A stretch of DNA of 64,000 nucleotides from Candidatus Heimdallarchaeum aukensis (lineage in GTDB: Archaea; Asgardarchaeota; Heimdallarchaeia; Heimdallarchaeales; Heimdallarchaeaceae): positions 224,001 to 288,000 of the forward strand of contig CP084166.1 of assembly GCA_021513695.1 (NCBI GenBank). Direction: 5' to 3'. Shown piece after piece: positions 3,162 to 43,907 of the stretch (position 1 is its first letter; every line of letters starts with the position of its first letter). Both the position numbers and the translations under genes were made by a program. Under the pieces are notes generated by a model that searched no databases, had not been told where the DNA came from, and saw only the letters and a program-made list of their open reading frames with translations.

Positions 3162-4112
3162 TTACTTTGTTAGAAACTCAAGTTTCTCGATATTAATAAA
3201 ACCAAAACTCACTAGATTTGAAAATAAAGAGAGAAAATAGGGGAAAGAAATAATTAATTCTTCATTCTTAAAAATCTCATAAATATCGTAAATCGTATGA
3301 TTAATATTTCCACAGCATTCTTTTAGCATTTTTATGAAAAGTTTGTAAACTTTAACTGGTGTCATCGGGAAAATCTCATCAAAATTTTTTTCGAATATAT
3401 CAATATTTGTTTTGTAACTGTGTGGAATAGCGATTCTAGATTGTAATAACAAATCCAACTCTAGCAATGAAATATCATCAGGGGGATTTTCAATAATTCT
3501 ATCAATGTAAGCAGGGATAAAAGCTAGTGAAAAATTGTCTAAATAAACAAGCTGTTCTATTAAATCGTTAATTTTCTTAATCCACAGTTGAGCTATTTTA
3601 GTATTTAGTGATGAATTGATGCAGATCTTAGTTTCTATGAAGTTGAGAATAGAGTATTCAACAATTTCATTGCACTGTTTATCAGTATTATTGGAATTCT
3701 CTTCAAGATAGTATATTTCTTCTCTTAATTTGTCTATTATCTTAAGAGAGTATAGGTTTACTCCTCCGTAATCAATCGTTGGGGTTAATATTTGCTGATT
3801 ATATTTTGAAATTGATGGTATTGGAATCCCGAATTCTACATCTTGTTCTCCTATTATTGAAGGTGTTTTATCAATATCCGTACGCAAAAGAACATGAGAT
3901 CTAACTGAATTGTTAGTGTCTATAAAGAGTTTTGTAGCTCTTAATGAGCTATCTCCACACTCATGTACATCTACAAGTTCAAAGATATCTTTACCTTCGT
4001 TCAAAAAAGGTAAAATCGTCTTTGGAATGAAAATTATTCTTTGTTTTTGACATGCTGTACATAAATACTCTATTGAAACTCGAGATTCAGCTCTTATTGT
4101 CAATTTCTTCAA
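3162..4112 (-). CDS. Hypothetical protein with N-terminal Cys/His motif (CxxC...VHxC); paralog of 16127..16990
   Basis: 316 aa. 'EYLCTACQKQRIIFIP...LVDVHECGDSS...NSVRSHV...GIPIPSISK' aligns with 'EYQCNICLKQRIMGLP...IIDVHKCKGNK...NVRTQIP...GLPLPSPQK' of the second copy. Confidence 0.5.
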   Translation of the reverse strand: MKKLTIRAESRVSIEYLCTACQKQRIIFIPKTILPFLNEGKDIFELVDVHECGDSSLRATKLFIDTNNSVRSHVLLRTDIDKTPSIIGEQDVEFGIPIPSISKYNQQILTPTIDYGGVNLYSLKIIDKLREEIYYLEENSNNTDKQCNEIVEYSILNFIETKICINSSLNTKIAQLWIKKINDLIEQLVYLDNFSLAFIPAYIDRIIENPPDDISLLELDLLLQSRIAIPHSYKTNIDIFEKNFDEIFPMTPVKVYKLFIKMLKECCGNINHTIYDIYEIFKNEELIISFPYFLSLFSNLVSFGFINIEKLEFLTK

Positions 4113-4507: not shown

Positions 4508-5092
4508 GTGGTACAAATGAACTCATTGAATCAAAACATCTTTAAAATCGTACTCCTTGGAGAAGGAGCTGTAGGAAAAACCTCTTTAAAACGAACTTAT
4601 ATGGGTGAAGAATTCGTAGAAGGATATAAAATGACAGTAGGTGCTGATTTCGCAGTCAAGAAACTGGAGGTAGATTTCTACAAAATAACTTTGCAGATAT
4701 GGGATCTAGCAGGGCAACCTAGGTTTGATGCGGTAAGAGAGGCATACTATAGAGGAGCTAAAGGAGCTTTACTAGTTTTTGATATCTCTAGACCAGAAAC
4801 ATACGAAATACTACCTAAATGGCTAAATGAGTTAATAAAAAACAGTGGTGGACGAAAGGTACCAATAATTCTAATTGGAAATAAATCTGACTTGCGCGAA
4901 AAACATGATCAAACTGTTCCAATTAACTATGCTGAAGATTATGCTGAAAAGCTAACAATGTGGTCTGGATATCACGTGTCTTACGTTGAAACAAGTGCAA
5001 AAACGGGAGAAAATGTAGAAAAAGCCTTTAGTGAATTAGCTCTTCAACTTGTACGTAATTTAGAAAAATTAAAAGTTGAACTAGGGATATAA
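4508..5092 (+). CDS. Ras/Rab-like small GTPase (eukaryote-signature type)
   Basis: 194 aa. G1 'GEGAVGKTS', switch-II/G3 'WDLAGQPRF' (DxxGQ), G4 'GNKSDL' (NKxD), G5 'ETSAK'. This is a Rab/Ras-like layout rather than a bacterial Era/Obg one. Confidence 0.85.
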   Translation: MVQMNSLNQNIFKIVLLGEGAVGKTSLKRTYMGEEFVEGYKMTVGADFAVKKLEVDFYKITLQIWDLAGQPRFDAVREAYYRGAKGALLVFDISRPETYEILPKWLNELIKNSGGRKVPIILIGNKSDLREKHDQTVPINYAEDYAEKLTMWSGYHVSYVETSAKTGENVEKAFSELALQLVRNLEKLKVELGI

Positions 5093-5096
5093 AAAA

Positions 5097-5867
5097 TTAC
5101 TTTCTAAAATATGGTATTTTTACATAAGGTAATTTAATAATAAATTTGTCTTTTGAATAAACAATTATTCCACCAAGTCCTTTAACACAATGTTCGATAA
5201 AATCTTGTTCTATTGACTTTACTTTTTCTCTTTTACCTAAAGTTTCAACCAATTTAAACTTATCATAAAGATTAATTTTAAATACAAAATCCAGCATGTT
5301 CTGCTCATTACTGTATATAATTATAATCTCTGAATTTTTTTGTTGTTGCAATAAGGATTGAAACATAAGATATTCAAATAGGATATCGAGATTTTCATCT
5401 TTAACTATACATAAATCAGCAGAACCTTCAGGAAAAATAATGTCTGGAGATTGTTTAGTATAATGAGTGAGAAGATAGTGAGAAGTTAATTCTTTTATGA
5501 ACTCATGCAAGTTAACAAATGTCTTTTTGTACAATCTTCTAGATAATAACGTTATCAACTGTCTAGTAAATTTAATTTTAAAAATACTCTCTTCTAAAAG
5601 TAGAAGTGATTCATTATTCTCAAAACTTCCTTCTTTCATTGCTGATAAAATACTTAAATTATATACTGTATGGAGAAGATTTCCCATGTCATGGGTTAAA
5701 ATTTCAACTATTTTTGTTGTTCTTTGGTTTTCAGTCTCTATTTCTCGAGTCTTAATTTTTAGATTTTTACTTAACTGATAATTCCAAAGAAATAGAGATA
5801 TGATTAATATAAGTACTAAAGCGAATATAGAGACTACAGCGATTAGAAAAATTGCATAGCTATTCAA
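5097..5867 (-). CDS. Membrane-anchored protein with HisKA-like H-box (putative degenerate sensor histidine kinase)
   Basis: 256 aa. N-terminal TM helix (IFLIAVVSIFALVLILIISLFLW), a predicted coiled segment, then 'ILTHDMGNLLHTVYNL' resembling the H-box (sHELRtPL). The C-terminal ATPase motifs are weak ('GLGG' only). No response regulator is adjacent. Confidence 0.4.
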   Translation of the reverse strand: MNSYAIFLIAVVSIFALVLILIISLFLWNYQLSKNLKIKTREIETENQRTTKIVEILTHDMGNLLHTVYNLSILSAMKEGSFENNESLLLLEESIFKIKFTRQLITLLSRRLYKKTFVNLHEFIKELTSHYLLTHYTKQSPDIIFPEGSADLCIVKDENLDILFEYLMFQSLLQQQKNSEIIIIYSNEQNMLDFVFKINLYDKFKLVETLGKREKVKSIEQDFIEHCVKGLGGIIVYSKDKFIIKLPYVKIPYFRK

Positions 5868-8885: not shown

Positions 8886-10922
8886 TTACTCAAAATAAAC
8901 TTCTTTGATCTTTGTATCAATATATTCTTTTATTTCTTCATATTCCAATATATCTTCATGAGGATACTCTAATAGCTTTTTTTCAATCAAGACGGCTATT
9001 TCTTCAGTCTTTTTCTTTAGTGCATACGAAAAACGGTCTACGAATAAAGCAATTGTAAATTCACTTTTTCCTAATAAAAGCATTATATATTCAGAGTGTT
9101 CCAAAATTCTTAGCTCTCCTTTCTTTAGTTTTAGAGTTTTGCTTATATTTTTTATAGCATTAATCATTCCAACAATAAGCAACTCATCAGAATGGAAAAT
9201 ATCTCCATAAGAGTAACTATAGAAAGGAACATTTTCAACAATTAATAAGAAATGAAAAAGATGGAAGTTATTTCTACTGCTTCTAATCTCTGAAGTGAGT
9301 AATCCCTTTGTAGTGTATTGTTTTATTAGATTATCTATTTCTAAAGAAAAATCCATAGAAAAGGGAGTTTGTTCGAATTCTGAGTTTGCTTTTGCCTTCT
9401 TTAGTAGTTGATAGATTTGTCTAATATTCTCTTCTTTATAATTTAAATTATGCTTTTTACATATTATTTCCACTCTTTTTAGCAAATCTTCTGAAAGGTG
9501 AAGTTTGTTTGTATATATGTAAACTGTTGCTAATAGCAACATATAATTTACTAATTGATAAAAGGCATTAAGTTCTTTCAATAGAATAATTATTTCTTGA
9601 GAATATAACTCGATTTCCTCTAATATTTTTTGCTTATTAATTTTATTAGTCTCGATTTTAAACATTACAAGATATAATTCAATCAAGTAAAGAAGAGCAT
9701 TTAATGCTTGGGGAAAAAGGTTCAATTCTCTGGCATAATTTATTCCTTTTAGTAAATAATCTCTGGATGAATAGTAATTCATTTTATAAAATTCAAAAAT
9801 GCCTTTAGTTGTAATATAGGTAGTATAATAAGCGTTAAGTTTAGGCTCATCTAATTTAAATGTCTTTGAATATTTTTCTAAATACAATCCTGCTTTATCA
9901 AAATTGTTAGATATAGCGTATGTCTCTGCTGCTAAAGGATAAATATAATCAAGAGCAATATTGTATTGTTCACTAATTTTAATAGCCTGTTCTAGAAATT
10001 TAAGGGATTCAGGAATGTTATTTAACAGTCTGTAAGCATAGATTATTTCTGCATTTATCATGGCTATATTTCTTAATTCTTTCTTTTTTTCCATAAAAAT
10101 AAGAATGTTAAATAAGTGTTTTAAACCCTCTTTGAAAAATCCTTGTTTGAGCAAAACTACTGCATAATTTGCTTTAGCAACTATTTTTCCTCTTTCAATT
10201 TTTTCAGAACTGAATAATTTAATTGCCTCTGCATAGGCAACCTTACTTTCTATTATTGATCCAGAATAAAGAAGGCAATTTCCTTGCATATTTAGTAAAT
10301 ATGCGTGCAAGTAAACATCTGAAATATCATGTTTTAGGATTTTTTGTAATGCTTTCTCTGAAATGTAAATTCCTTTAATATATTGATGTTTCATGTAGTT
10401 GAACAAGGTTTCTGTATAAAGATACATTATTTCGTAAAATCTACAAAGTTTTTTATCTTTTTCAAATTCACTAACTTGGTCCAATATCTCTAATGCTTTA
10501 TTCAAATATTCTTCTGCTTGCTCAAGTTCGTTTATAACAGAATAGTATTCTACTACATGAAGAAAAAAATCAAAAAGATAGATAATTTGAGTATTGATTT
10601 TACCTTTATCCAGTTTTTCTATTATTTCTTCGATTTTTGGATAATCTCCTTGTATTGCTACAATACGCGAAAAAGAAGCAAAAATTTCAAAAGATTTAAA
10701 CTTCAGATAAAACTCTGATAATTTTTCTCTATCATCATAAATTAATAGAATTTTAGCAATTAAAGCTTGATAATCTGAAGGAACTGAAGAAGATAGAATT
10801 TCATCCCAATACTTTAGGATTGTATTGTAGAAATCAAAATAAGTGTTAAACAACTTTGGATGCATTTTTCCATGTAAGAAATCTTCTTCTAAAAACCTCT
10901 CATATCGCTTTATTTGCATCAT
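8886..10922 (-). CDS. TPR-like helical-repeat protein with C-terminal Roadblock/LC7-like domain (paralog 1)
   Basis: 678 aa. Long helical repeat region rich in Y/L/A/E. C-terminal ~100 aa 'FLLIVENVPFYSYSYGD...LLIVGMINAIKNISKTL...ELRILEHSEYIMLLLGKSEFTIALFVDRF' fits the beta-alpha-beta-beta-alpha pattern of MglB/Roadblock. The Roadblock assignment is inference from pattern, not a search. Confidence 0.55.
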   Translation of the reverse strand: MMQIKRYERFLEEDFLHGKMHPKLFNTYFDFYNTILKYWDEILSSSVPSDYQALIAKILLIYDDREKLSEFYLKFKSFEIFASFSRIVAIQGDYPKIEEIIEKLDKGKINTQIIYLFDFFLHVVEYYSVINELEQAEEYLNKALEILDQVSEFEKDKKLCRFYEIMYLYTETLFNYMKHQYIKGIYISEKALQKILKHDISDVYLHAYLLNMQGNCLLYSGSIIESKVAYAEAIKLFSSEKIERGKIVAKANYAVVLLKQGFFKEGLKHLFNILIFMEKKKELRNIAMINAEIIYAYRLLNNIPESLKFLEQAIKISEQYNIALDYIYPLAAETYAISNNFDKAGLYLEKYSKTFKLDEPKLNAYYTTYITTKGIFEFYKMNYYSSRDYLLKGINYARELNLFPQALNALLYLIELYLVMFKIETNKINKQKILEEIELYSQEIIILLKELNAFYQLVNYMLLLATVYIYTNKLHLSEDLLKRVEIICKKHNLNYKEENIRQIYQLLKKAKANSEFEQTPFSMDFSLEIDNLIKQYTTKGLLTSEIRSSRNNFHLFHFLLIVENVPFYSYSYGDIFHSDELLIVGMINAIKNISKTLKLKKGELRILEHSEYIMLLLGKSEFTIALFVDRFSYALKKKTEEIAVLIEKKLLEYPHEDILEYEEIKEYIDTKIKEVYFE

Positions 10923-11046
10923 TTTATTTCATTATTACTTTATCATAGTATATCTCAAGAGTCGTTAAAAGTTTATCTGATTTTCAAAAATTGATTGATT
11001 CTCGGCGACTCAAAAATAATAAAATAGCTAGAGTTCAAAAGAATAA

Positions 11047-13095
11047 CTACTTTTCAAATATTTCAATTCTTAAATTATCTATTTCTTGTTTTATAGGAGT
11101 TAAAATCTTATTGGTAAAATAGTCAATCTGCAAAACTTCTGTTTGTTGCAATAAACTCTCAATTTTGTTAGCAAATTGAATCAAACGTTCTTTTACAGAA
11201 TAATAGAACTCATCAATGAAGAGAACAACTGAATATTTCTTTCGTTTTTCAATCATTACTATAAAATCAGTAAACTCGATAAGCTTAAAGATTCCATGTT
11301 TTTTTGTCAGAGAGTCACTGAACGATTCAATAGCTTTGAATAATCCAGATAGAAGAAGTTGTTTTTCTTCAATTTTTTCTCCTTTAAATTGATGTGAATA
11401 TAATGGTAAACCGTTAAAGTGAATAATTATTAGATTTATTAGGTGATCTTTGTTATATAAATTGAGGTTTACTTCTATGTTCCTAATTTCTGTAGAAGGT
11501 TTCTGTAATGTTTTTGTTATACTATTCAAACTGAATATTTGAAGAGCTTTATCATCTAACTTTTCAGGATTCTGTTCCATTTTTTTCAGTGTTTGCATTT
11601 CACGTAAAATTTCTTTAAGTTGAGTATTCATATTGTAGTTTTTACATAACTCTACAGTTAAAGAGTAAATATGGTTCGCAAGATCGAATTTCTCCTGAAG
11701 TGCATAAATCCTAGCTAAAAGTAATTGAAAATCTATTTTTAAGTAAATGTTGCTGTGTTTTCGTAATATTAGGGATATCTCTTCGCAAATTTCCTCTAAT
11801 TCACTTATAATTTCTTCAGAATACTGTATTTGTAATTTCTTAATCAAGTAAATTGAATGATATTTCAGTCCAGTTAGATAAAGGGGAAAATTTTTGATAC
11901 TTTTAGCTATTTCTATTCCTTTTTCCAGGAAAATAGATGCATTGTATAAATTTCCTCTTATTAATTCGTAATATCCCTTTAAAGAATAAAATGCACCATT
12001 ATGGAAACTGATGTTTTCTTTATCTTTTAAGATAATATTTTCAAATGTTTTCAAAAGTTTTTCAACAATATCAAATTTTTGAATTTGTATTGCGAACTCG
12101 ATTGATGATATTAATACTTCGTCGTCATAGACTAATCTTGTTTCTAAGAGTTTTATATTTTCTTTAAGATATTCTACTGCTTTTTCTGTTTTACCAATTT
12201 CTATTAGGCATTGCATAATCTCTCTATTTATTAAAGCTACATTTCTCAACTCATTGTTTTCAGAGAAAAATTCTTTGATTTTTATTAACTTAGGTAGAGC
12301 TTCTTTATGTTTTCCGAGTTTGATATCTAAAGAAGCTATATTTCCTTCTGTTACAATTTTTCCTCGATTATTATTCATTTCATTAAACAAATTAAATGAT
12401 TTATAGTAATTTGACTTCGATTGTTTAAGCAACCCTTTAAACATGTAAGCGTTACCTAGAGTGTTGTAAGTAACTGCTAAAAGAAATTCATCTGTTTTTT
12501 CAATATTTTCTAATATTTTTTTGGCTTCACTAAAGTAAAAAATAGCTTTATCTGACTCTCGATATCTAAAAACAGTGAAACCCAGAGTATAGAATAAATT
12601 TGCTTGAAGAAAAAGAAACAATTGACCTTCACTCTTATTTAAGAGAAGTTTGCATTGTGAAATTAGCTGAGAAGCTAATTCATTATTGAAAGTTGTAGCA
12701 AATATTTTTATTTCAGAGTTGTAGAAGTAAAATCTAGGAAAAATTGAAGATTTAGAAATAGATGCTAGATCAGTTTCTGCAATATATGTTTGTGCTTTAA
12801 TTAATCCTCTTTTTAATCGTAATATGTTGAGTAAAGGGCCTAAAGTTTCGATTGAATTATATTTTTTATAAAGAAATTCTAATTTATCATATTCTCCATA
12901 CATATTAAACAAATAACTAATTAAAAATTGAACATCAGGGGGTATGAAAATGTCTCTTATCTTTTTCCAATAATTTTGAACATTTCTGTAAAGATTAAAC
13001 TCTTTCACTTCTGTTATAGTTTTTAACTTTAGATATTTTTTTATCCAATTTTGATCATCAGAGTTTAATAACTGTAAATACCAATCCAAAACCAT
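11047..13095 (-). CDS. TPR-like helical-repeat protein with C-terminal Roadblock/LC7-like domain (paralog 2)
   Basis: 682 aa, same architecture as 8886..10922. C terminus 'INLIIIHFNGLPLYSHQF...LLLSGLFKAIESFSDSL...FKLIEFTDFIVMIEKRKKYSVVLFIDEF...LIQFANKIESLL' aligns position by position with the MglB/Roadblock fold pattern. Confidence 0.55.
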   Translation of the reverse strand: MVLDWYLQLLNSDDQNWIKKYLKLKTITEVKEFNLYRNVQNYWKKIRDIFIPPDVQFLISYLFNMYGEYDKLEFLYKKYNSIETLGPLLNILRLKRGLIKAQTYIAETDLASISKSSIFPRFYFYNSEIKIFATTFNNELASQLISQCKLLLNKSEGQLFLFLQANLFYTLGFTVFRYRESDKAIFYFSEAKKILENIEKTDEFLLAVTYNTLGNAYMFKGLLKQSKSNYYKSFNLFNEMNNNRGKIVTEGNIASLDIKLGKHKEALPKLIKIKEFFSENNELRNVALINREIMQCLIEIGKTEKAVEYLKENIKLLETRLVYDDEVLISSIEFAIQIQKFDIVEKLLKTFENIILKDKENISFHNGAFYSLKGYYELIRGNLYNASIFLEKGIEIAKSIKNFPLYLTGLKYHSIYLIKKLQIQYSEEIISELEEICEEISLILRKHSNIYLKIDFQLLLARIYALQEKFDLANHIYSLTVELCKNYNMNTQLKEILREMQTLKKMEQNPEKLDDKALQIFSLNSITKTLQKPSTEIRNIEVNLNLYNKDHLINLIIIHFNGLPLYSHQFKGEKIEEKQLLLSGLFKAIESFSDSLTKKHGIFKLIEFTDFIVMIEKRKKYSVVLFIDEFYYSVKERLIQFANKIESLLQQTEVLQIDYFTNKILTPIKQEIDNLRIEIFEK

Positions 13096-13104
13096 ATTTT
13101 TCCC

Positions 13105-13800
13105 CTAAGTATATCTATCTTTAGGTCTCCTTTCTGGTATCATTTCAATTTCTTGATTTTTTGTGAAATCATAATCTTTCTTAAAGAATAGAGCACAATA
13201 GCATCTTCCATATTCATTGATATCTTCTTCTGCATAATCACAAGGACAACAAATATCTCTATCAAGCTGAATATTTTCGTTTGTATCTCGACAAGGACAA
13301 TTAAAATAACCTATTCTATTATAATTATCTTTTAGTCCTTGTATTAACATGTCTAAAGTTCCATCGTTATTTGGATGTAACTTCCAATTCTTCTTTTTAG
13401 CTATATTCTGAACATATTTCTTTACTTCTTCAAAAGTTTTTGACTTTTTACTTCTTCCAATACCATGAAAGAGTTTCTCCCATTTCTTTTTGTTAAATCC
13501 CATTTCATATTTTTCTCCGTCAATAACTACGAATGGAAAAGCTATAAACTCCAAATTAAAAGCATGTCTTATTTCTTTTTTGATCTCTTTTTTTTCATTA
13601 TAGTTTATTAGATCTATATCGATAAAATAGTAAGAAATTTTATTATCTTTTAGCCAATTTTTACTTTTTTTACACCATTGACATGTAGAGATAGCAAAGA
13701 GAAAAACTTCAAAATCAGTTGTTGAATCTTCAAATAGCTCTAAATTATAGTTTGGCAAACTCTTAATTTTTTTTGCTATCTTTAAGTTTAGTTTCTCCAT
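13105..13800 (-). CDS. Glutaredoxin/thioredoxin-like domain fused to ferredoxin:thioredoxin-reductase catalytic-subunit-like domain
   Basis: 231 aa. N-terminal 'CQWC' redox CxxC in a Grx-like context. C-terminal 'NCPCRD...ICCPCD...GRCYCALF' resembles the CPC...CPC...CHC Fe-S/disulfide cluster of the FTR catalytic chain. Confidence 0.6.
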   Translation of the reverse strand: MEKLNLKIAKKIKSLPNYNLELFEDSTTDFEVFLFAISTCQWCKKSKNWLKDNKISYYFIDIDLINYNEKKEIKKEIRHAFNLEFIAFPFVVIDGEKYEMGFNKKKWEKLFHGIGRSKKSKTFEEVKKYVQNIAKKKNWKLHPNNDGTLDMLIQGLKDNYNRIGYFNCPCRDTNENIQLDRDICCPCDYAEEDINEYGRCYCALFFKKDYDFTKNQEIEMIPERRPKDRYT

Positions 13801-13875
13801 AGTATCACTTATTCGTCAATATTATACTAACTGTGTTGATTAATAATAAATGTTCTTCTACTATCAATCCAATAA

Positions 13876-14427
13876 TTATAAAGTATTTAAAAAGGCTATT
13901 TCATTGAAATTCTTTCTTGGAGGTCTATTTTTTTCAGAGTTTGCATCCTTTTCTGATAATACTTCAGTATAATTCTCATTATGTCTTCCCACTATAATTA
14001 ATGTAATAATTCTGTATTCTTGGGGAATATTCAATACATTTTTAGCTTCTTCTTCGTTAAACCCAGCTATTGGATGGGCAACAAGTCCCATTTCTGTTAA
14101 ACGTAGGATAATATTTGCTGTTGCCATTCCTGTATCAAAAAGATAGTATTCTCTTCCTTTAACTATACAATCTAAATCTGGTTTAGAGAAAACAGCAATT
14201 ACCATTGAAGCTTTTTTCGCCCAAGCATTTGCTTCAGATAAAGTAGAAAAGATTTTTTCCAGATTTTCTTTCCCGTAAACAAAGACAAATCTCCAAGGTT
14301 GTTTGTTAAAACAAGAAGGAGCTAAACTTGCTAATTCAACCAATTCCTTTATCATTTCTTCTTTTACTTCAAAGGGAAGTAATGATCTGTATGCTCTCCT
14401 TTTATTAACTATTTCATAAAAATTCAT
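13876..14427 (-). CDS. Nitroreductase-family flavoprotein
   Basis: 183 aa. 'KRRAYRSL' (RRSxRxF-type FMN-binding signature) and 'PSCFNKQPWRFVFV', typical of the NfsB/NOX family. Its stop abuts the start of the Bcp gene. Confidence 0.75.
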   Translation of the reverse strand: MNFYEIVNKRRAYRSLLPFEVKEEMIKELVELASLAPSCFNKQPWRFVFVYGKENLEKIFSTLSEANAWAKKASMVIAVFSKPDLDCIVKGREYYLFDTGMATANIILRLTEMGLVAHPIAGFNEEEAKNVLNIPQEYRIITLIIVGRHNENYTEVLSEKDANSEKNRPPRKNFNEIAFLNTL

Positions 14428-14904
14428 TTAATCACCTTTTATATTTAAAATTGTAGACAAAACATCCATAGAATGCTCTTTAACTTTTACTTTTTCCCAT
14501 ATCTTAGCAACTTTTCCTTCAGGAGAAATAAGGAAGGTCTTTCTAGCTGTACCAAAAAACTTCTTCGGTCCCATTTTCTTCTTAACCCAACAACCATAAG
14601 CTTCAATTATTTCATGGTTTTCATCGCTTAGTAAAATTACTTTTAGATCCTTTTTCTCTTCAAATTTCTTAAGTTTACTAATTGGGTCATTACTTATCCC
14701 AAAAATTATGGCATCTCTTTTCTTGAATTCTTCAATTTGTTCAGAGAATGTTTTTGCTTCAATTGTACATCCTGGAGTATTTGCTCTGGGGTAAAAATAA
14801 ACTACAACCCATTTTCCTAAATAGTCTTTTAGACAATGTTCTTTCCCATTTTGGTCCTTTAGACAAAAATCAATGGCTTTATCACCAACTTTTAAATTTG
14901 ACAT
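14428..14904 (-). CDS. bcp: Peroxiredoxin, Bcp-type (AhpC/TSA family thiol peroxidase)
   Basis: 158 aa. 'VVVYFYPRANTPGCTIEAKTF' contains the peroxidatic Cys in the T-P-G-C-T context. Confidence 0.85.
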   Translation of the reverse strand: MSNLKVGDKAIDFCLKDQNGKEHCLKDYLGKWVVVYFYPRANTPGCTIEAKTFSEQIEEFKKRDAIIFGISNDPISKLKKFEEKKDLKVILLSDENHEIIEAYGCWVKKKMGPKKFFGTARKTFLISPEGKVAKIWEKVKVKEHSMDVLSTILNIKGD

Positions 14905-16126: not shown

Positions 16127-16990
16127 TTATTTTTTATCTACAAAATTTATGGTTAAGATATTAATTATACCTTTTTCAACTAAATTAGCTAAGATTGCGA
16201 TATATTCACTAAAAGAAAAATTATACTTTAGTTCATTGTATATTAGTAATATGTTGTTTTTATCATTGTTTTTACACTTTTCAATAATAGAAGCTAGATT
16301 TCGACTTTCAACAGTATCAAGGTCATTAAAAATCTCTCCAAATTCAGTGTCTTCTTTTATAGTTTGAGGAATTGAGCAAATACTATTTATTATTAATTCA
16401 AGAGCAAGTTTATCGCTCAAGTTCATCTCGTTCGTTACCTTATCATCTAAAAATTTTAGTACAAGTTCTAAAGCTTTGACATCAATATAGGTTGCTTTAG
16501 AGTAAGCTTCTTCAATTCCAGTTAACCATTTTTTAACTTGTTTTTTCTGAACTTCTTTTTCTGTTAATATTTGAATTTCAAGGAATTGGTCATCAATAAT
16601 TATTTTATCTAAGTCGTTTTTTTTAGTTTGATCAAAAACAAATATCTTATTTCTAATTTTATCGTTTATTTGGAAATAATCAATGTTTCTGATTCTAATA
16701 AGATGATCAGTAATGATTTCAATTTTCGATCTCTCTACTTTTTGAGGAGAAGGAAGAGGAAGTCCAGGAATACTAGATTCATCATTTTCCTTTTTTACTG
16801 GAATCTGTGTCCTTACATTTAAATCAGAATCCACATGAAGTAGAATAGCATTTTCCTTATTACCTTTGCATTTGTGAACATCAATAATATCCATTAAACC
16901 TCTCGTATCTACATTAAAATTTATATTTTCAGGAAGACCCATTATTCTTTGTTTTAAGCAGATGTTACATTGATATTCTATCTTCTTCAT
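16127..16990 (-). CDS. Hypothetical protein with N-terminal Cys/His motif; paralog of 3162..4112
   Basis: 287 aa. The shared N-terminal motifs are listed under 3162..4112. Confidence 0.5.
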   Translation of the reverse strand: MKKIEYQCNICLKQRIMGLPENINFNVDTRGLMDIIDVHKCKGNKENAILLHVDSDLNVRTQIPVKKENDESSIPGLPLPSPQKVERSKIEIITDHLIRIRNIDYFQINDKIRNKIFVFDQTKKNDLDKIIIDDQFLEIQILTEKEVQKKQVKKWLTGIEEAYSKATYIDVKALELVLKFLDDKVTNEMNLSDKLALELIINSICSIPQTIKEDTEFGEIFNDLDTVESRNLASIIEKCKNNDKNNILLIYNELKYNFSFSEYIAILANLVEKGIINILTINFVDKK

Positions 16991-26428: not shown

Positions 26429-27424
26429 TTGTTGTTAGTGTTAAAACAAAAAAGAAATAAAAAGATAGTTTGTGCTCTTACAATGACCTCTCTACGCGAA
26501 ATTATCAAACCAAACAAAAAGTTCAATCTAATCAATTTAGATGAAAAAAAAACTGTAGAATTTTGGATTATTTGCTTAGTTGTTGTTATAGATTTGATTT
26601 TTTCAGTTATCATAAATTTGGTTATTTATCGCTTTGGAATATTTAATTGGATTTACGATATAACAGGTTTTGTAACGCCAACAATGCTTGCTTATACAAT
26701 ATTATATTTAGTTATTATAGGTTTATTAATAATTTATTTAGGAAAGCTAAAACCTAAAGATTTAGGATTTTCAACTAGCAAACTTTGGCAAGGTGTTTTA
26801 ATTGTGTTTGTTGGTTGGTTCATTATTCAAATTGCAGGTGTAATTTATTCACTAATTATAAGTGGGACATTAACAATTGATAGTTATATGGTTCAATCTT
26901 CTGCAAAGTTAATAATTATAAAAAACGTTGTTCAATGGTTTTTTAATGCACCATTTGAAGAATTTTTATTTAGAGAATTTTTACTTACACAACTATATTT
27001 ACAGTTCAAAAATAGATTAATTGATGATCCTAAATCGGTTAAGAAGTCTCTAACTCGTTCTTTGATAATATCACAACTAATATTCTCGTTTATGCATATT
27101 CCAAATCGTATTCTATGGGTAGTGAGTTCAGAAAGTTATACTGTAAAAGAAATAATCTGGGCAGCGGTTAATCCTCTTCAATACGGAGTTTTGTTCCTAA
27201 TAGGATTAACATTTGCCATGTTGTATCACAGGACTGATAATATTTTCATTGTTATAGGAATACATGCACTTTTTAATGAACCTAACTCTTTGTTCTTTCC
27301 TAAATGGATAGGTTCAATCTTAATTTATGTTCTTGCAATAATTATAATCCTTTTCTATCCGTTTTTCTTGAGTAAATACTCTAAAGAAAAAGAAATAATT
27401 ATTGAAAAAGATAAAATCCCTTAA
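26429..27424 (+). CDS. CPBP-family intramembrane metalloprotease (CAAX protease / Abi domain)
   Basis: 331 aa. 'FEEFLFREFLL' (EExxxR), 'FSFMHIPNR' (FxxxH) and 'IHALFNEP' (HxxxN) in consecutive TM helices. Confidence 0.7.
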   Translation: MLLVLKQKRNKKIVCALTMTSLREIIKPNKKFNLINLDEKKTVEFWIICLVVVIDLIFSVIINLVIYRFGIFNWIYDITGFVTPTMLAYTILYLVIIGLLIIYLGKLKPKDLGFSTSKLWQGVLIVFVGWFIIQIAGVIYSLIISGTLTIDSYMVQSSAKLIIIKNVVQWFFNAPFEEFLFREFLLTQLYLQFKNRLIDDPKSVKKSLTRSLIISQLIFSFMHIPNRILWVVSSESYTVKEIIWAAVNPLQYGVLFLIGLTFAMLYHRTDNIFIVIGIHALFNEPNSLFFPKWIGSILIYVLAIIIILFYPFFLSKYSKEKEIIIEKDKIP

Positions 27425-28415: not shown

Positions 28416-29279
28416 ATGATTTTTCTGATCTCTCTTAAAAAAATTCAAAAAAAAAATAAATATCAAGAAGAAGAAAAAAGAACCATGAGCGAAGAAAAAT
28501 CAAAAGTTAAGTCATTCTTTAATCCAATTTCTTTTGTAGTTATTTTGCTAATTTGGAATTGGTTAGGTGGTTATCTACTTGATCTTTTTTCAGTTCCGTC
28601 TCAATGGATAGGGACTTATTATCTAGCAGGAACACTTATTTGGAGTTTAGTTTTTGCTAGAGTAGTCAATAAGAAACTAGAAAATATTGGTGTTACAGTT
28701 AAAGTCAAATTTGATTTAAAGTCTTTATTACTAATTATTTTAGCTGCTTTAATAGGTTCAGTATATTTGCTTTTGTCTGCGATCTACAAGTATTCTTTAC
28801 CTTTGGTTGAAATAAACACAGAAATCATAGTCACACTTATTGTTTTACCTATCTCAATTCTAATACAAGCTTTTTTTGAAGAGATAGCTTGGGCAGGATG
28901 GCTTTATTCAAACTTGAAAATGAGAGAAGAAGTAAAGAACTTGATTATAGGTTTGGTATGGGCTGTCTGGCATGTTCCTTTCTATCTATGGGGAATCAAA
29001 TATTTCACATATACACCCTTGTTATACTCTCTTAATGTCATAGGGATAATCTTATCACGTTTTGTTATTAACTGGTTCAGAAAAGAAATGGACAATGTAT
29101 GGTGGCCAACTTTCTATCATGGAGGAATAAATTTAGGTGGATTTATAATCATAGTATTGTATCCTGGTATCGAAAAAATAGCTGAAGTTATAGTATATTC
29201 AGGGTTAATACGAACAGTTATAATCTTGATTTTACAGATTGTAATAACTTTTATTGGAAAGAAAAGAGAAAAAGTTTAA
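28416..29279 (+). CDS. CPBP-like intramembrane protease family protein (second copy, more divergent)
   Basis: 287 aa. 'FFEEIAWAGWLYSNL', 'WAVWHVPFY' and 'FYHGGINLG' are in CPBP-like positions. The true start may be the internal Met of 'MSEEKSKVKS'. Confidence 0.5.
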   Translation: MIFLISLKKIQKKNKYQEEEKRTMSEEKSKVKSFFNPISFVVILLIWNWLGGYLLDLFSVPSQWIGTYYLAGTLIWSLVFARVVNKKLENIGVTVKVKFDLKSLLLIILAALIGSVYLLLSAIYKYSLPLVEINTEIIVTLIVLPISILIQAFFEEIAWAGWLYSNLKMREEVKNLIIGLVWAVWHVPFYLWGIKYFTYTPLLYSLNVIGIILSRFVINWFRKEMDNVWWPTFYHGGINLGGFIIIVLYPGIEKIAEVIVYSGLIRTVIILILQIVITFIGKKREKV

Positions 29280-37788: not shown

Positions 37789-38799
37789 TGTTTACTCTAT
37801 CCACGTTGGTAACAAATAAATAGAAAGTGGGTTACGAGGGTAAATGATGTATTATGAACAAACCCAAACGTAACCTAGAGAGACTAAGAAAGATTGTGGT
37901 TAAAAAAGCTTTGGAAGGAGAGAAGATAAAAGAGGTAGCTCACAGGTTTATGGTGAGTAGGAAGTTTGTTTACAAGTGGTTGAAGAGGTTCAGAGAGAAC
38001 CCTGAAGGAGAATGGTGGAAGAATAGATCATCTAGACCTAAAACTATACACAGGAAAGTGGATGAGGAGTTAAGAGAGAAGATAAGGGAGTTAAGAGTAA
38101 AGCAAGGAATGAACGTGGAGAAGATAGTTTATCTGTTGAAGAAAGAAGGAAGAGCATTATCGCGAAACACAGTAGTTAAAGTAATAGGAGAGTTAGGTCT
38201 TCCTCTGTGGAGTAATAGAAAAAAGAGAAACAGAACTCAATACAAGAGTTTTGAACGCTCTAGCCCTAACGAACTCTGGCAGATAGATGTGAAAGGACCA
38301 TTCTGGATAGAAGAACAAGGACAACACCTTTATCTCATAACCTTGATAGACGACCACTCACGATTCTGTCTGGGAGCTAAACTCCACCCTTTTGCACCGA
38401 AAAAAGAGCAGATAATAAGTTTGTTAGAAGGAGCAATAGAAAAATATGGACACCCCGAGTCTATCCTCACGGACAATGGAGCACTCTTCTACTCCGTTAG
38501 AGGAGGAACAAGTACCTTCTCCCGTTGGTGTCAAACAGAAGGAATAAAACACATCAGATCTAGAGTTTTTCACCCCGAAACATGCGGAAAAGTAGAAAGA
38601 CTACATGGAACCATCATCCGTGAGATGAAAAGACTAGGACTAACCTACTGTAACTCCGACCTCTCCTTCTACCGCTCTTACTACAATTTTAGCCGTCCTC
38701 ACCAGTCTCTTAACCTCCTTACCCCTGGAGAAAAATTTATGAATCACCCCTACGTTTCTCTAGTGCCCAAAAGTGTAACCCAGGTCTATTGAGTGAACA
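37789..38799 (+). mobile_element. IS481-family-like insertion sequence (single DDE transposase, 25-bp imperfect terminal IRs, 15-bp TSD)
   Basis: IRL 37789-37813 'TGTTTACTCTATCCACGTTGGTAAC' versus revcomp of 38775-38799 'TGTTCACTCAATAGACCTGGGTTAC' (18/25 match, both start TGTT). The transposase stop lies inside the IRR. Flanked by an identical 15-bp direct repeat. Confidence 0.7.
37854..38792 (+). CDS. DDE transposase with rve (integrase core) domain and N-terminal HTH, IS481-like
   Basis: 312 aa. N-terminal HTH ('VAHRFMVSRKFVYKWLKRF'). DDE triad candidates 'WQIDVKG', 'ILTDNGALF' and 'GKVERLHGT'. Confidence 0.85.
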   Translation: MNKPKRNLERLRKIVVKKALEGEKIKEVAHRFMVSRKFVYKWLKRFRENPEGEWWKNRSSRPKTIHRKVDEELREKIRELRVKQGMNVEKIVYLLKKEGRALSRNTVVKVIGELGLPLWSNRKKRNRTQYKSFERSSPNELWQIDVKGPFWIEEQGQHLYLITLIDDHSRFCLGAKLHPFAPKKEQIISLLEGAIEKYGHPESILTDNGALFYSVRGGTSTFSRWCQTEGIKHIRSRVFHPETCGKVERLHGTIIREMKRLGLTYCNSDLSFYRSYYNFSRPHQSLNLLTPGEKFMNHPYVSLVPKSVTQVY

Positions 38800-41577: not shown

Positions 41578-42669
41578 ATGACAACAGTTGAAGAGAAAGC
41601 AAAAATAGAAACGAGTACTAATCAATTGATGGAGTTTTTAGAAGAAGTTTCAGGTCTTTCTGCAGCACAAAAAAAGCGAGTTTACAAGACTCTCGTTGAT
41701 TTTGGGATAACTCACCCTTTAGCTTTTAAAAATCGAACAGTTAAAGAACTTACAAGAATAGATGGAATAAGTGAAAATGTAGCAGAAAAAATAGTTGAAC
41801 ACGCTAATCCTTCAAAAAAAGGTGAACTACTATTCAAGTCATTAGCTGAAGTAAAGAAAGAAGAAGATTCAACTATTATGATAAGTACTGGTTCAAAAAG
41901 ATTAGATGAATTACTAGGTGGAGGAATAAGTTTAGGAACTCTAGTAGAATTTTATGGTTCTCCCCAAAGTGGAAAAACCCAATTGTGTTATACAATTGCA
42001 GCAAATACTTTATTGGAAATTGGAGGAGTATTATGGTTAGATACAGAAGGAAGTTTTAGACCTTCAAGATTAGAACAAATATTATTTTATCTTGAAGAAA
42101 AAAAGAAAGAAAAAATAGATGAAAAGCAAAAAGAGAAAATAAATAGCCAATTTAATGTAGCTACAGTCAGAACTCTTGCACAATTAGAACTAGCTCTACA
42201 ACAAGTAGAAAAAGTAATCACTGCTTATGATGTGAAATTGTTAGTTGTAGATAGTCTAATGGATATTTTTAGAGCAGAGTATGGAGGACTAGGAGAATTG
42301 GCTGAAAGACAAAAACATCTAAATGTGGTTGTACACAAAATGATGAAACTAGCTGACGCATATAACATAGCTGTCGTATATACAAATCAAGTCATGGCTA
42401 ATCCAGATCCTTTTGCTACTGCTTTAGATAAAGTTCAGCCTGTAGGAGGTTTCGTTTTAGGTCATGCTAGTGATATACGCATCTGGTTACGAAGAGCCAC
42501 TTCAGCAACAAAAAAGAAATATGACGCTCCAAATGCAAGAAGGGCAATGATTACAGATTGTGGGTGGTTACCTATGGAAGAAACTATTTTCTCTATCGGA
42601 GCTTTTGGAATATGTGATGTTGAAGAAGAGAGTGAAATGAAAGAAGAAGCAAATATTGAAGAGAAATAA
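41578..42669 (+). CDS. radA: RadA/Rad51-family recombinase, divergent (N-terminal HhH domain plus RecA core with insertion and acidic C-terminal tail)
   Basis: 363 aa. HhH region 'KTLVDFGITHPLAFKNRTVKELTRIDGISENVAEKIVEHA'. Walker A 'FYGSPQSGKTQLC' (canonical archaeal RadA is GEFGSGKTQ). Walker B 'LLVVDSLM'. Lys/Glu-rich insert 'LEEKKKEKIDEKQKEKINSQ'. Acidic tail 'DVEEESEMKEEANIEEK'. Confidence 0.65.
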   Translation: MTTVEEKAKIETSTNQLMEFLEEVSGLSAAQKKRVYKTLVDFGITHPLAFKNRTVKELTRIDGISENVAEKIVEHANPSKKGELLFKSLAEVKKEEDSTIMISTGSKRLDELLGGGISLGTLVEFYGSPQSGKTQLCYTIAANTLLEIGGVLWLDTEGSFRPSRLEQILFYLEEKKKEKIDEKQKEKINSQFNVATVRTLAQLELALQQVEKVITAYDVKLLVVDSLMDIFRAEYGGLGELAERQKHLNVVVHKMMKLADAYNIAVVYTNQVMANPDPFATALDKVQPVGGFVLGHASDIRIWLRRATSATKKKYDAPNARRAMITDCGWLPMEETIFSIGAFGICDVEEESEMKEEANIEEK

Positions 42670-42752: not shown

Positions 42753-43907
42753 TTGAGAATTGTGAATGAAGTAAGTTTAAGTAGTTTGATATTGTCAATA
42801 TTGTTGTTTATATTTAGTCTTACTCTCACTTATCAATCGATATTCAAGAAAAGGAAAACTTGGTTTTTTAATTTAGCTGTCTATCTAAGCTTTCTCTTAA
42901 CGCTTTCTGAAGTAGTTAGAAGTGCAGTTACTGGAAAAGACCTATCTTTAATTTTAATTACTATTGCTCTTATAATTTGGTCTTTAATCTATATCTTATT
43001 ATTCTTGTTCTTTCAACAGTTAGTTTCTAATACAATAAATCCTATTTTAACAATAGTAATCTTTCTTTTTTATTTTATTGAGATTGAATTTGGGATTCTG
43101 CAGTTCTTTGATTACCCTGGAATAATTAATTACCTTTATATCTTATTGTGGGATCTGGGTTATGACTCTCTTGGTTTTATCATTTTTATATATGGAGCGA
43201 TTGTTCATTTTCGTATTTTGAAAAGATCAAAAAATATAGAAGCAGGTATAATCACTTCTGCCTTAATTGTAATTGCTTTTGGTTTTGTTTGGGGATTCAC
43301 AATAGATTTTTTCATTTTTTTGGAGAATATTGGTGTTTTAGTAAGTAGTAATTTTTTATCTATTATTAAAAAGAGTCTGCTATCAGGAGATATCATAAAA
43401 GCACTAGGAATCCTCGTTTTTACAGGTGTATATGTATTTAGACCTAATTACATATTTAAACATCCGTTCAAGATAGATAGTCTAATAATTTATAACAGAA
43501 TAGGATTACCAATTTATGGTGCAAAATATACTAAATCAAATACAGAAGAAGAAAAAGAAATTACAGAGAAAAAATCTTATCATTTCGAACTTATCGGTGG
43601 AGCTATTAATGCTTTAAGTGAATTCATTATCACAACTGCAGGATCAAAGAAAAAACTAAATGAGATAAATACTGAAGATAAAATAATTAAAATAGTTTCA
43701 ACAGATCTTTGTTCCATAGTTGTTATGAGTGATAAAATCTCTTTTTTCCTAATTCAGAGTATGAAAAGGGTTGTTAATTTAATAACTAAAAAATATCCTA
43801 AAGAATTGGAAGAAAAACACTTGGAAGATGATATTTTTCCTGATATAAAGAAGATGATAAAAGACAGTTTTCCTTTTTTACCAAAACCTGTGTATGAATA
43901 CAGTTAG
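42753..43907 (+). CDS. Polytopic membrane protein with C-terminal cytoplasmic Roadblock/LC7-like domain
   Basis: 384 aa. About 7 TM helices in residues 1-240. The C-terminal 'IGLPIYGAKY...ELIGGAINALSEFIITTAG...KIIKIVSTDLCSIVVMSDKISFFLIQ' shares the 'GLP(I/L)Y...G..AI..F' pattern with the two TPR-Roadblock proteins. Confidence 0.45.
   Translation: MRIVNEVSLSSLILSILLFIFSLTLTYQSIFKKRKTWFFNLAVYLSFLLTLSEVVRSAVTGKDLSLILITIALIIWSLIYILLFLFFQQLVSNTINPILTIVIFLFYFIEIEFGILQFFDYPGIINYLYILLWDLGYDSLGFIIFIYGAIVHFRILKRSKNIEAGIITSALIVIAFGFVWGFTIDFFIFLENIGVLVSSNFLSIIKKSLLSGDIIKALGILVFTGVYVFRPNYIFKHPFKIDSLIIYNRIGLPIYGAKYTKSNTEEEKEITEKKSYHFELIGGAINALSEFIITTAGSKKKLNEINTEDKIIKIVSTDLCSIVVMSDKISFFLIQSMKRVVNLITKKYPKELEEKHLEDDIFPDIKKMIKDSFPFLPKPVYEYS

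Follow-up and report, generated by a model that had tools for sequence, protein, structure and literature searches.

A tandem pair of TPR–longin paralogues in Candidatus Heimdallarchaeum aukensis as a possible platform for small GTPases

Rab-, Arf-, and Rag-like small GTPases number in the dozens in Asgard archaea, and gene order rarely helps to find the proteins that regulate them. To our knowledge, almost nothing has been learned of the guanine nucleotide exchange factors (GEFs) and GTPase-activating proteins (GAPs) that act on these enzymes. Here we consider a stretch of 64,000 nucleotides from Candidatus Heimdallarchaeum aukensis (contig CP084166.1, positions 224,001 to 288,000), referred to below as the window. 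Two adjacent genes in it, A and B, encode proteins in which a tetratricopeptide repeat (TPR) region precedes a C-terminal α/β domain, and a Rab-like GTPase is encoded about 4 kb away. This locus raises the question of what the two proteins are and whether a small GTPase is their partner. Our current hypothesis, held with slightly better than even confidence, is that an ancient duplication gave rise to A and B as scaffold proteins, each with a ~540-aa N-terminal region carrying a TPR array of the kinesin-light-chain (KLC)/LGN type and a single C-terminal longin domain, and that the pair likely serves as a heterodimeric platform on which a small GTPase or a different partner docks. The nearby Rab-like GTPase is not indicated as that partner.

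The two genes, taken from the open reading frame (ORF) list, are as follows.

8886..10922, minus strand: gene A, 678 aa, TPR–longin protein, downstream member of the pair
11047..13095, minus strand: gene B, 682 aa, TPR–longin protein, upstream member of the pair

The genes share a strand and are separated by 124 bp from B to A. A BLASTP comparison of the products gives an end-to-end alignment with 25% identity across 659 aa (E=3e-46), which is far beyond chance and marks A and B as genuine, old paralogues. An earlier note on this DNA, written from the sequence alone, had described two tandem paralogous minus-strand proteins of ~680 aa with a TPR-like scaffold, and that description is borne out by the ORFs, by their identity, and by a TPR_12 match in B. 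The closest database entry to B is a 99% identical hypothetical protein from a Candidatus Heimdallarchaeaceae metagenome-assembled genome, and a word-index search with full-length B returned this same protein and one 82% orthologue only.

The C-terminal domain is predicted to be a longin

In both proteins, the C-terminal α/β domain spans about 130 aa.

11050..11442, minus strand: longin domain of B, about residues 552-682, element order β1 β2 α1 β3 β4 β5 α2 α3
8889..9269, minus strand: longin domain of A, about residues 552-678 (family hidden Markov model (HMM) E=1.5e-30, residues 552-670)

Conventional searches were silent about this domain. The last ~150 aa of A and B had no Pfam match even at E<=10, Robl_LC7 and Fuz_longin_1 included, and no Pfam or NCBIfam model recognizes the longin domain of either protein. 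The word-indexed protein database held no homologue of the C-terminal domain, and a two-sequence profile found no match among PDB sequences. A profile of the A and B domains was run exhaustively against 1.84 billion representatives (HMM search, E<=1e-3), and this revealed a family of 140 representatives at 50% identity. A search for related loci with a 13-sequence alignment of the family brought up 7 loci in genomes and only 2 in metagenomes. The family motifs are lyIi..sG[LIV]PxYS, LiSGllsAI.sF, l..i.h.dy.illE, and f.valv.d.es…r.kl..F.

The B domain was modeled with AlphaFold2 using a 55-sequence family alignment (A3), resulting in a pLDDT of 88.5 and a pTM of 0.82. The strands (E) and helices (H) of the model are E8-15, E20-25, H32-52, E61-63, E68-73, E77-83, H88-108, and H118-137. 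This corresponds to a predicted topology of β-β-α-β-β-β-α-α, in which the five-stranded antiparallel sheet and long central helix of the Roadblock/longin superfamily are followed by two C-terminal helices and are not preceded by an N-terminal helix. A 4-sequence model of low confidence (pLDDT 50), which starts 5 residues further upstream, likewise lacks a long N-terminal helix. Roadblock domains follow the order α-β-β-α-β-β-β(-α), a difference from longins that was set out by Tran et al. (PMC10933270). Based on its element order, the modeled domain is a longin, with C-terminal helices in place of the N-terminal helix of Roadblock/LC7 (PF03259). The earlier note had assigned the domain to MglB/Roadblock; the superfamily fold that it recognized stands, while the Roadblock assignment gives way to the longin order of the model and to the missing Robl_LC7 match in A and B.

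Structural comparison agrees with this assignment. Longins align with the model over 119-125 residues and Roadblocks over 74-105 residues. In a Foldseek search the alignments to AP σ subunits, ζ-COP, TRAPPC1, Fuzzy, and MON1A span 127-145 columns, as compared to mostly ~80-97 columns for Roadblocks. The AP σ subunits and ζ-COP are the top matches, and the predicted structure alone would not set Mon1/Ccz1 apart from TRAPP, adaptin, or SNARE longins.

Sequence profiles give a somewhat different ranking. The best PDB sequence matches of the family profile are to longin domain 1 of MON1A (E=0.006 and 0.009), in an alignment that runs through the common loop 'SeaGkPvYS' ('sGxPxYS'), and these are followed by Bet5 (E=0.02-0.05) and an Odinarchaeota Roadblock (E=0.07). 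When the 55 members were compared individually with Pfam, Fuz_longin_1 was the commonest match (26/55, best E=9.6e-7), followed by Intu_longin_1 and Robl_LC7 (10/55 each, the latter weak with a best E=2.8e-4) and Sybindin (5/55). The family consensus matches Fuz_longin_1 (PF19036) with E=1.2e-4 and 22.8 bits, below the cut-off of 26.1, and Intu_longin_1 (PF19031) with E=0.003. We therefore describe the domain as a longin with a sub-threshold affinity, at the level of sequence, to the first longin domains of the Rab-GEF subunits Mon1/Fuzzy/HPS1 and Ccz1/Inturned/HPS4, which appear to be its closest relatives.

The N-terminal region carries a TPR array

12136..12603, minus strand: TPR array of B, about residues 165-320 (Pfam TPR_12, E=5.6e-9)
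9957..10364, minus strand: TPR-like region of A, about residues 187-322, aligning with the TPR region of B

TPRs are the sole Pfam signal in full-length A and B. The TPR_12 match in B (36.5 bits) exceeds the cut-off of 30.1, and this region of B is also matched by the TPRs of GPSM2/Pins. Protein A stays below threshold, with both TPR_12 (E=1.6e-5, 25.4 bits) and TPR_MalT (E=1.1e-4) short of their cut-offs. A profile of the N-terminal ~545 aa, built from 17 sequences, matched the TPRs of kinesin light chain (KLC1) with E=8e-8 at profile positions ~169-326, and the next matches were OGT, Rap phosphatases, Pins/LGN, and γ-SNAP. Because KLC, OGT, Rap, and LGN carry classical TPRs and not HEAT/adaptin repeats, an adaptin- or COPI-like solenoid bearing a σ-like longin was rejected. 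The ~550 aa of helical repeats suggested by the earlier note thus contain real TPRs, which are recognizable as such only from about residue 165 to residue 330; the remainder of the N-terminal region is presumed, by extrapolation, to be helical.

The B→A arrangement is old

A close relative of the locus, L001, is fully syntenic with the window. Its proteins are 82-87% identical to those encoded here, which is too close for the synteny to carry much information. A more distant comparison was provided by a rough neighbor-joining tree on BLOSUM distances, in which B groups only with P0004 (35% identity) and A falls in a broad Heimdall 'A-type' clade (28-34% identity). Locus L011, on the contig that encodes P0004, has an A-type gene on the same strand as the B-type gene and 122 bp downstream of it; the product of this A-type gene is 35% identical to A (E=1e-111) but only 24% identical to B. 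Order, strand, and adjacency are thus kept at 35% identity, so the arrangement predates that divergence and, judged from these sequences, the B→A pair is ancient. Such a conserved pair suggests a heterodimeric longin platform. No other neighboring gene is conserved across the family loci.

A second tandem pair is present in locus L002. Both of its copies fall in the A-type clade, and we therefore rejected the possibility that it stems from the duplication that gave rise to A and B; it is probably an independent duplication.

The members of the pair differ in their longin motifs. In the clade alignment the A longin is degenerate: the loop glycine is lost (ENVP vs SGLP) and the β4-β5 loop reads G-K-S in place of E-x-R, while B keeps both motifs. 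The asymmetry calls heterodimeric longin pairs to mind. It also recalls pairs of catalytic and non-catalytic longins, and would agree with a GAP-type complex resembling FLCN–FNIP, NPRL2–NPRL3, or SMCR8–C9orf72, with B as the catalytic and the degenerate A as the non-catalytic subunit. B and most clade members do have a G-x-P before β2 and an arginine (E-x-R) in the β4-β5 loop adjacent to it, both of which A has lost, and GAP-like longins have been reported from Heimdallarchaeia (PMC12290439). However, GAP longins are defined by a contiguous GP before β2 together with a conserved arginine finger (PMC12290439). The loop of the present family, [PS][SN]G[LIY]P, is a G-x-P with the G-[LIV]-P form seen in Mon1, and the arginine is absent in L003 and L009 as well as in A, so the GAP-longin signature is lacking. 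In addition, A and B have no DENN domain, and folliculin- and NPRL-type longins are not among the top Pfam families matched. We consider a GAP-type complex the least probable of the readings discussed here. If a GTPase is bound, the present sequence data would not by themselves discriminate between a GEF and a GAP.

Linkage of the nearby Rab-like GTPase to the family is not supported

4508..5092, plus strand: Rab-like small GTPase, 194 aa (Pfam Ras PF00071, E=1e-48, 165.5 bits)

The best solved relative of this protein is a Thorarchaeota Rab (E=3e-40), followed by Rab11/Ypt31-32 and Rab7, which places its Ras-family G domain nearest the Rabs and confirms that the ORF near the pair encodes a Ras/Rab-like GTPase, as had been noted before. 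The protein ends in …KVELGI and has no C-terminal cysteine for prenylation.

The same earlier note had proposed that the pair is a regulatory hub for this GTPase. In its full form, the proposal takes the C-terminal domains for MglB-like Roadblock/LC7 domains and the pair for a GAP/GEF hub that serves the product of 4508..5092 specifically. Two observations speak for it: weak Robl_LC7 matches occur in 10/55 family members, and the GTPase lies 3.8 kb away in an arrangement kept in L001. The first is countered by the longin topology of the AlphaFold2 model and by A and B themselves, which give no Robl_LC7 match at E<=10. As for the second, the GTPase gene is on the opposite strand, its end is 3794 bp from the 3' end of A, and three genes lie between them, namely a PmbA/TldD pair and the gene of a 256-aa membrane protein. 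The GTPase is found beside the pair only in the 82%-identical relative L001, a locus too similar to be informative. To cover more distant loci, we searched the surroundings of family members of all architectures using phmmer with the window GTPase (E<=0.01) together with precomputed Pfam annotations. No Ras-like GTPase was present near family members in 18 independent loci (260 kb), so gene order gives no support to a hub for the nearby GTPase. This is consistent with PMC10933270, which reports that genes for Asgard GTPases do not, as a rule, share an operon with those for Roadblocks or longins. A dedicated Roadblock hub is thus very improbable.

The longin family occurs across Asgard archaea in several architectures

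Only some 20 of the 140 representatives could be given a taxon name, and these named members are all Asgard: Heimdallarchaeaceae, Heimdallarchaeota, Hodarchaeales/Hodarchaeota, Odinarchaeota, Hermodarchaeota, Baldrarchaeia, Promethearchaeota, and Candidatus Lokiarchaeum ossiferum. The homologue in the last of these, a cultured organism, is WP_371804681.1. With transmembrane (TM) helices called by a simple hydropathy window, the following architectures were distinguished.

Soluble helical/TPR region and longin, 470-850 aa: about 75 representatives
4-7 TM helices and longin, 335-430 aa: about 25 representatives
9-12 TM helices and longin: 3 representatives
Two longin copies, about 630 aa: 4 representatives
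Standalone longin, 120-200 aa: about 19 representatives

A third family member in the window belongs to the membrane-anchored group.

42753..43907, plus strand: TM–longin protein, 384 aa (family HMM E=1.6e-13), with several N-terminal TM helices and a longin at about residues 236-368

A split form of the TPR–longin protein was found in locus L017 (2101..4036, plus strand), where a gene for a 452-aa TPR protein is followed 172 bp later by a gene for a standalone 134-aa longin (P0050). The TPR protein matches the N-terminal regions of the fused TPR–longin proteins with E=1.4e-13. That both modules exist as one protein and as two supports the view that TPR and longin work as a unit.

Proposed role of the pair

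According to the summary in PMC10933270 of Levine et al. (2013), longin and Roadblock domains are typically homo- or heterodimeric platforms for small GTPases. By analogy, the longin domains of A and B may pair edge to edge to give an A/B heterodimer, as in Mon1–Ccz1, Bet5–Trs23, Fuzzy–Inturned, and σ–μ adaptin, and relatives with a single copy would form homodimers. The longin dimer would then present a flat platform on which a small GTPase, most likely an Asgard one, or another partner could dock, with the TPR arrays recruiting further proteins.

Several points weigh against this proposal of a heterodimeric platform. Most Heimdall relatives have a single A-type copy within ±8-10 kb, and a heterodimer is therefore not obligatory. 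SNARE longins, σ/μ adaptins, and sedlin do not act on GTPases. None of the 18 loci has a Ras-like GTPase, and the similarity to Fuz_longin_1, sub-threshold for the consensus, is undetectable for A and B themselves.

These points lead to a serious rival, in which the pair has no GTPase role. A and B would be TPR adaptors whose longin acts as a dimerization, autoinhibition, or membrane-proximal module, like the longins of SNAREs, sedlin, and σ-adaptin, possibly together with the TM–longin members. The AP σ subunits and ζ-COP at the top of the Foldseek matches would agree with such a role, as would the ~25 representatives with 4-7 and the 3 with 9-12 TM helices (one TM–longin protein being encoded in the window), the lack of GTPase linkage, and the absence of a GAP-type signature (no contiguous GP, no invariant arginine). 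However, the sequence affinity of the family is to the GEF longins of Mon1/Fuz and Ccz1/Intu and to TRAPP Bet5, and many Asgard small GTPases have regulators that are unknown (PMC10933270). A non-GTPase adaptor or membrane-proximal role is, in our estimate, unlikely, though it deserves to be kept firmly in mind beside the heterodimeric platform that we favor.

Comparison with known longin and Roadblock systems

The tri-longin domain (TLD) Rab GEFs Mon1–Ccz1, Fuzzy–Inturned, and HPS1–HPS4 share the longin fold and the hydrophobic pattern of the A/B domain family. Their first longins have the β1-β2 loop 'sG-x-P-x-Y-S' in common with it and are its best sequence-profile matches. These GEFs, moreover, involve two paralogous subunits, as does the A/B pair, whose genes lie side by side and are kept together. 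The differences are equally clear: a tri-longin GEF subunit has three consecutive longins, whereas A and B have one C-terminal longin each, the TPR region ahead of the longin is a feature of A and B, and their similarity to the GEF longins is below the Pfam threshold. We know of no TLD GEF with a TPR array N-terminal to a longin.

On a bolder reading, B and A would together form a heterodimeric GEF platform of archaeal longins with the same ancestry as Mon1–Ccz1, Fuzzy–Inturned, and BLOC-3. The conserved pair would be a pre-eukaryotic 'proto-TLD' Rab GEF with TPR arrays replacing the extra longins as scaffold, and the GEFs still missing for the Rab-like GTPases of Asgards would be found in the wider family with its TM-anchored, standalone, and double forms. 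We regard this as a decidedly long shot. Should the pair prove to be a GEF, a mechanism of the Mon1–Ccz1 type would have arisen before eukaryogenesis; if it does not, the pair would be one more product of the lineage-specific shuffling for which Asgard longin and Roadblock domains are known. Within the family, at least one pair of paralogues has stayed adjacent through deep divergence.

In TRAPP, small longins that stand alone and have Bet3-family proteins as flanking neighbors make up a heterodimeric platform for a Rab. Bet5/TRAPPC1 and Trs23/TRAPPC4 (Sybindin) match the sub-family consensus weakly (E=0.03), and no TRAPPC3/Bet3-like gene was noted among the scanned window proteins or the called genes of the family loci. 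Roadblock/LC7 proteins (MglB, LAMTOR2/3, dynein LC7, and the Asgard structures 9jue and 7f8f) differ in that their domain begins with a helix and ends with no more than one, whereas the A/B family has none at the N-terminal and two at the C-terminal side. They align with the A/B domain over the shorter range given above, and A and B have no match to their profile.

Finally, the family has the traits of the Asgard longin/Roadblock expansion, which was catalogued by Liu et al. (10.1101/2020.10.19.343400) and whose structures were the subject of work by Tran et al. (PMC10933270). Like the expansion, it is Asgard-wide, patchy, and present in multiple architectures, and both show lineage-specific fusions absent from eukaryotes and no operon linkage to GTPases. 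Liu et al. place Asgard Roadblock/longin proteins in 130 asCOGs, and the longin fusions described in the papers searched are those to GTPase, TRAPPC3, DENN, or two-component domains; a 2025 paper in Traffic covers related ground. Expansion and lineage-specific fusion of these proteins are thus already known, and the TPR–longin pair adds an architecture within that expansion. In these papers, supplementary asCOG tables aside, we found no description of a TPR–longin or TM–longin family, of an affinity of such a family to Mon1/Fuz, or of a conserved tandem pair. The family and the pair, WP_371804681.1 included, are concrete candidates for biochemical screening as missing Asgard GTPase regulators.

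Neighboring genes

A run of redox genes lies directly upstream of B on the same strand (13105..14904).

13105..13800, minus strand: glutaredoxin fused to the catalytic subunit of ferredoxin:thioredoxin reductase (Pfam), ending 9 bp before the start of B
13876..14427, minus strand: nitroreductase (Pfam, assigned via the syntenic L001 gene)
14428..14904, minus strand: AhpC/Redoxin protein (Pfam, assigned via the syntenic L001 gene)

Based on the 9-bp gap, co-transcription of the fusion gene with B and A is possible. The linkage of redox genes to B is seen in the window and in L001 only, and in L011 an asparaginase gene is directly upstream instead.

Next to the Rab-like GTPase gene, in convergent orientation and 4 bp away, is the gene of the 256-aa membrane protein (5097..5867, minus strand). 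Its product has an N-terminal TM helix and an H-box-like 'THDMGNLLH', gave no significant match to Pfam or NCBIfam, and may be a degenerate sensor-kinase-like protein. The divergent neighbor of the GTPase gene (3162..4112, minus strand, 316 aa) has a paralogue at 16127..16990 (minus strand, 287 aa; 25% identity, E=6e-23). L001 retains both proteins. They have an invariant N-terminal CxxC…HxC, and neither has a match in Pfam, NCBIfam, or PDB sequences; the 316-aa protein was accordingly rejected as a DENN or Roadblock partner of the GTPase. The window also encodes two Rce1-like CPBP/CAAX-protease paralogues (PF02517), at 26429..27424 (plus strand, E=2e-15) and 28416..29279 (plus strand, E=4e-10). 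Without a C-terminal cysteine, the Rab-like GTPase is not an obvious CAAX substrate.

Among the other family loci, L014 holds a 254-aa member (3174..3938, plus strand) with two tandem longin-like copies and a faint Robl_LC7 in the precomputed Pfam annotation. It adjoins a gene for a NOG1-type ribosome-biogenesis GTPase, which is not Ras-like, and this proximity is probably coincidental. The TM–longin gene of the window follows closely on a RadA/Rad51 gene (41578..42669). At 37854..38792 (plus strand) the window encodes an rve-family integrase with N-terminal helix-turn-helix domains, the transposase of an insertion sequence element, and a similar rve gene is found near the TM–longin gene of the Odinarchaeota locus L015.

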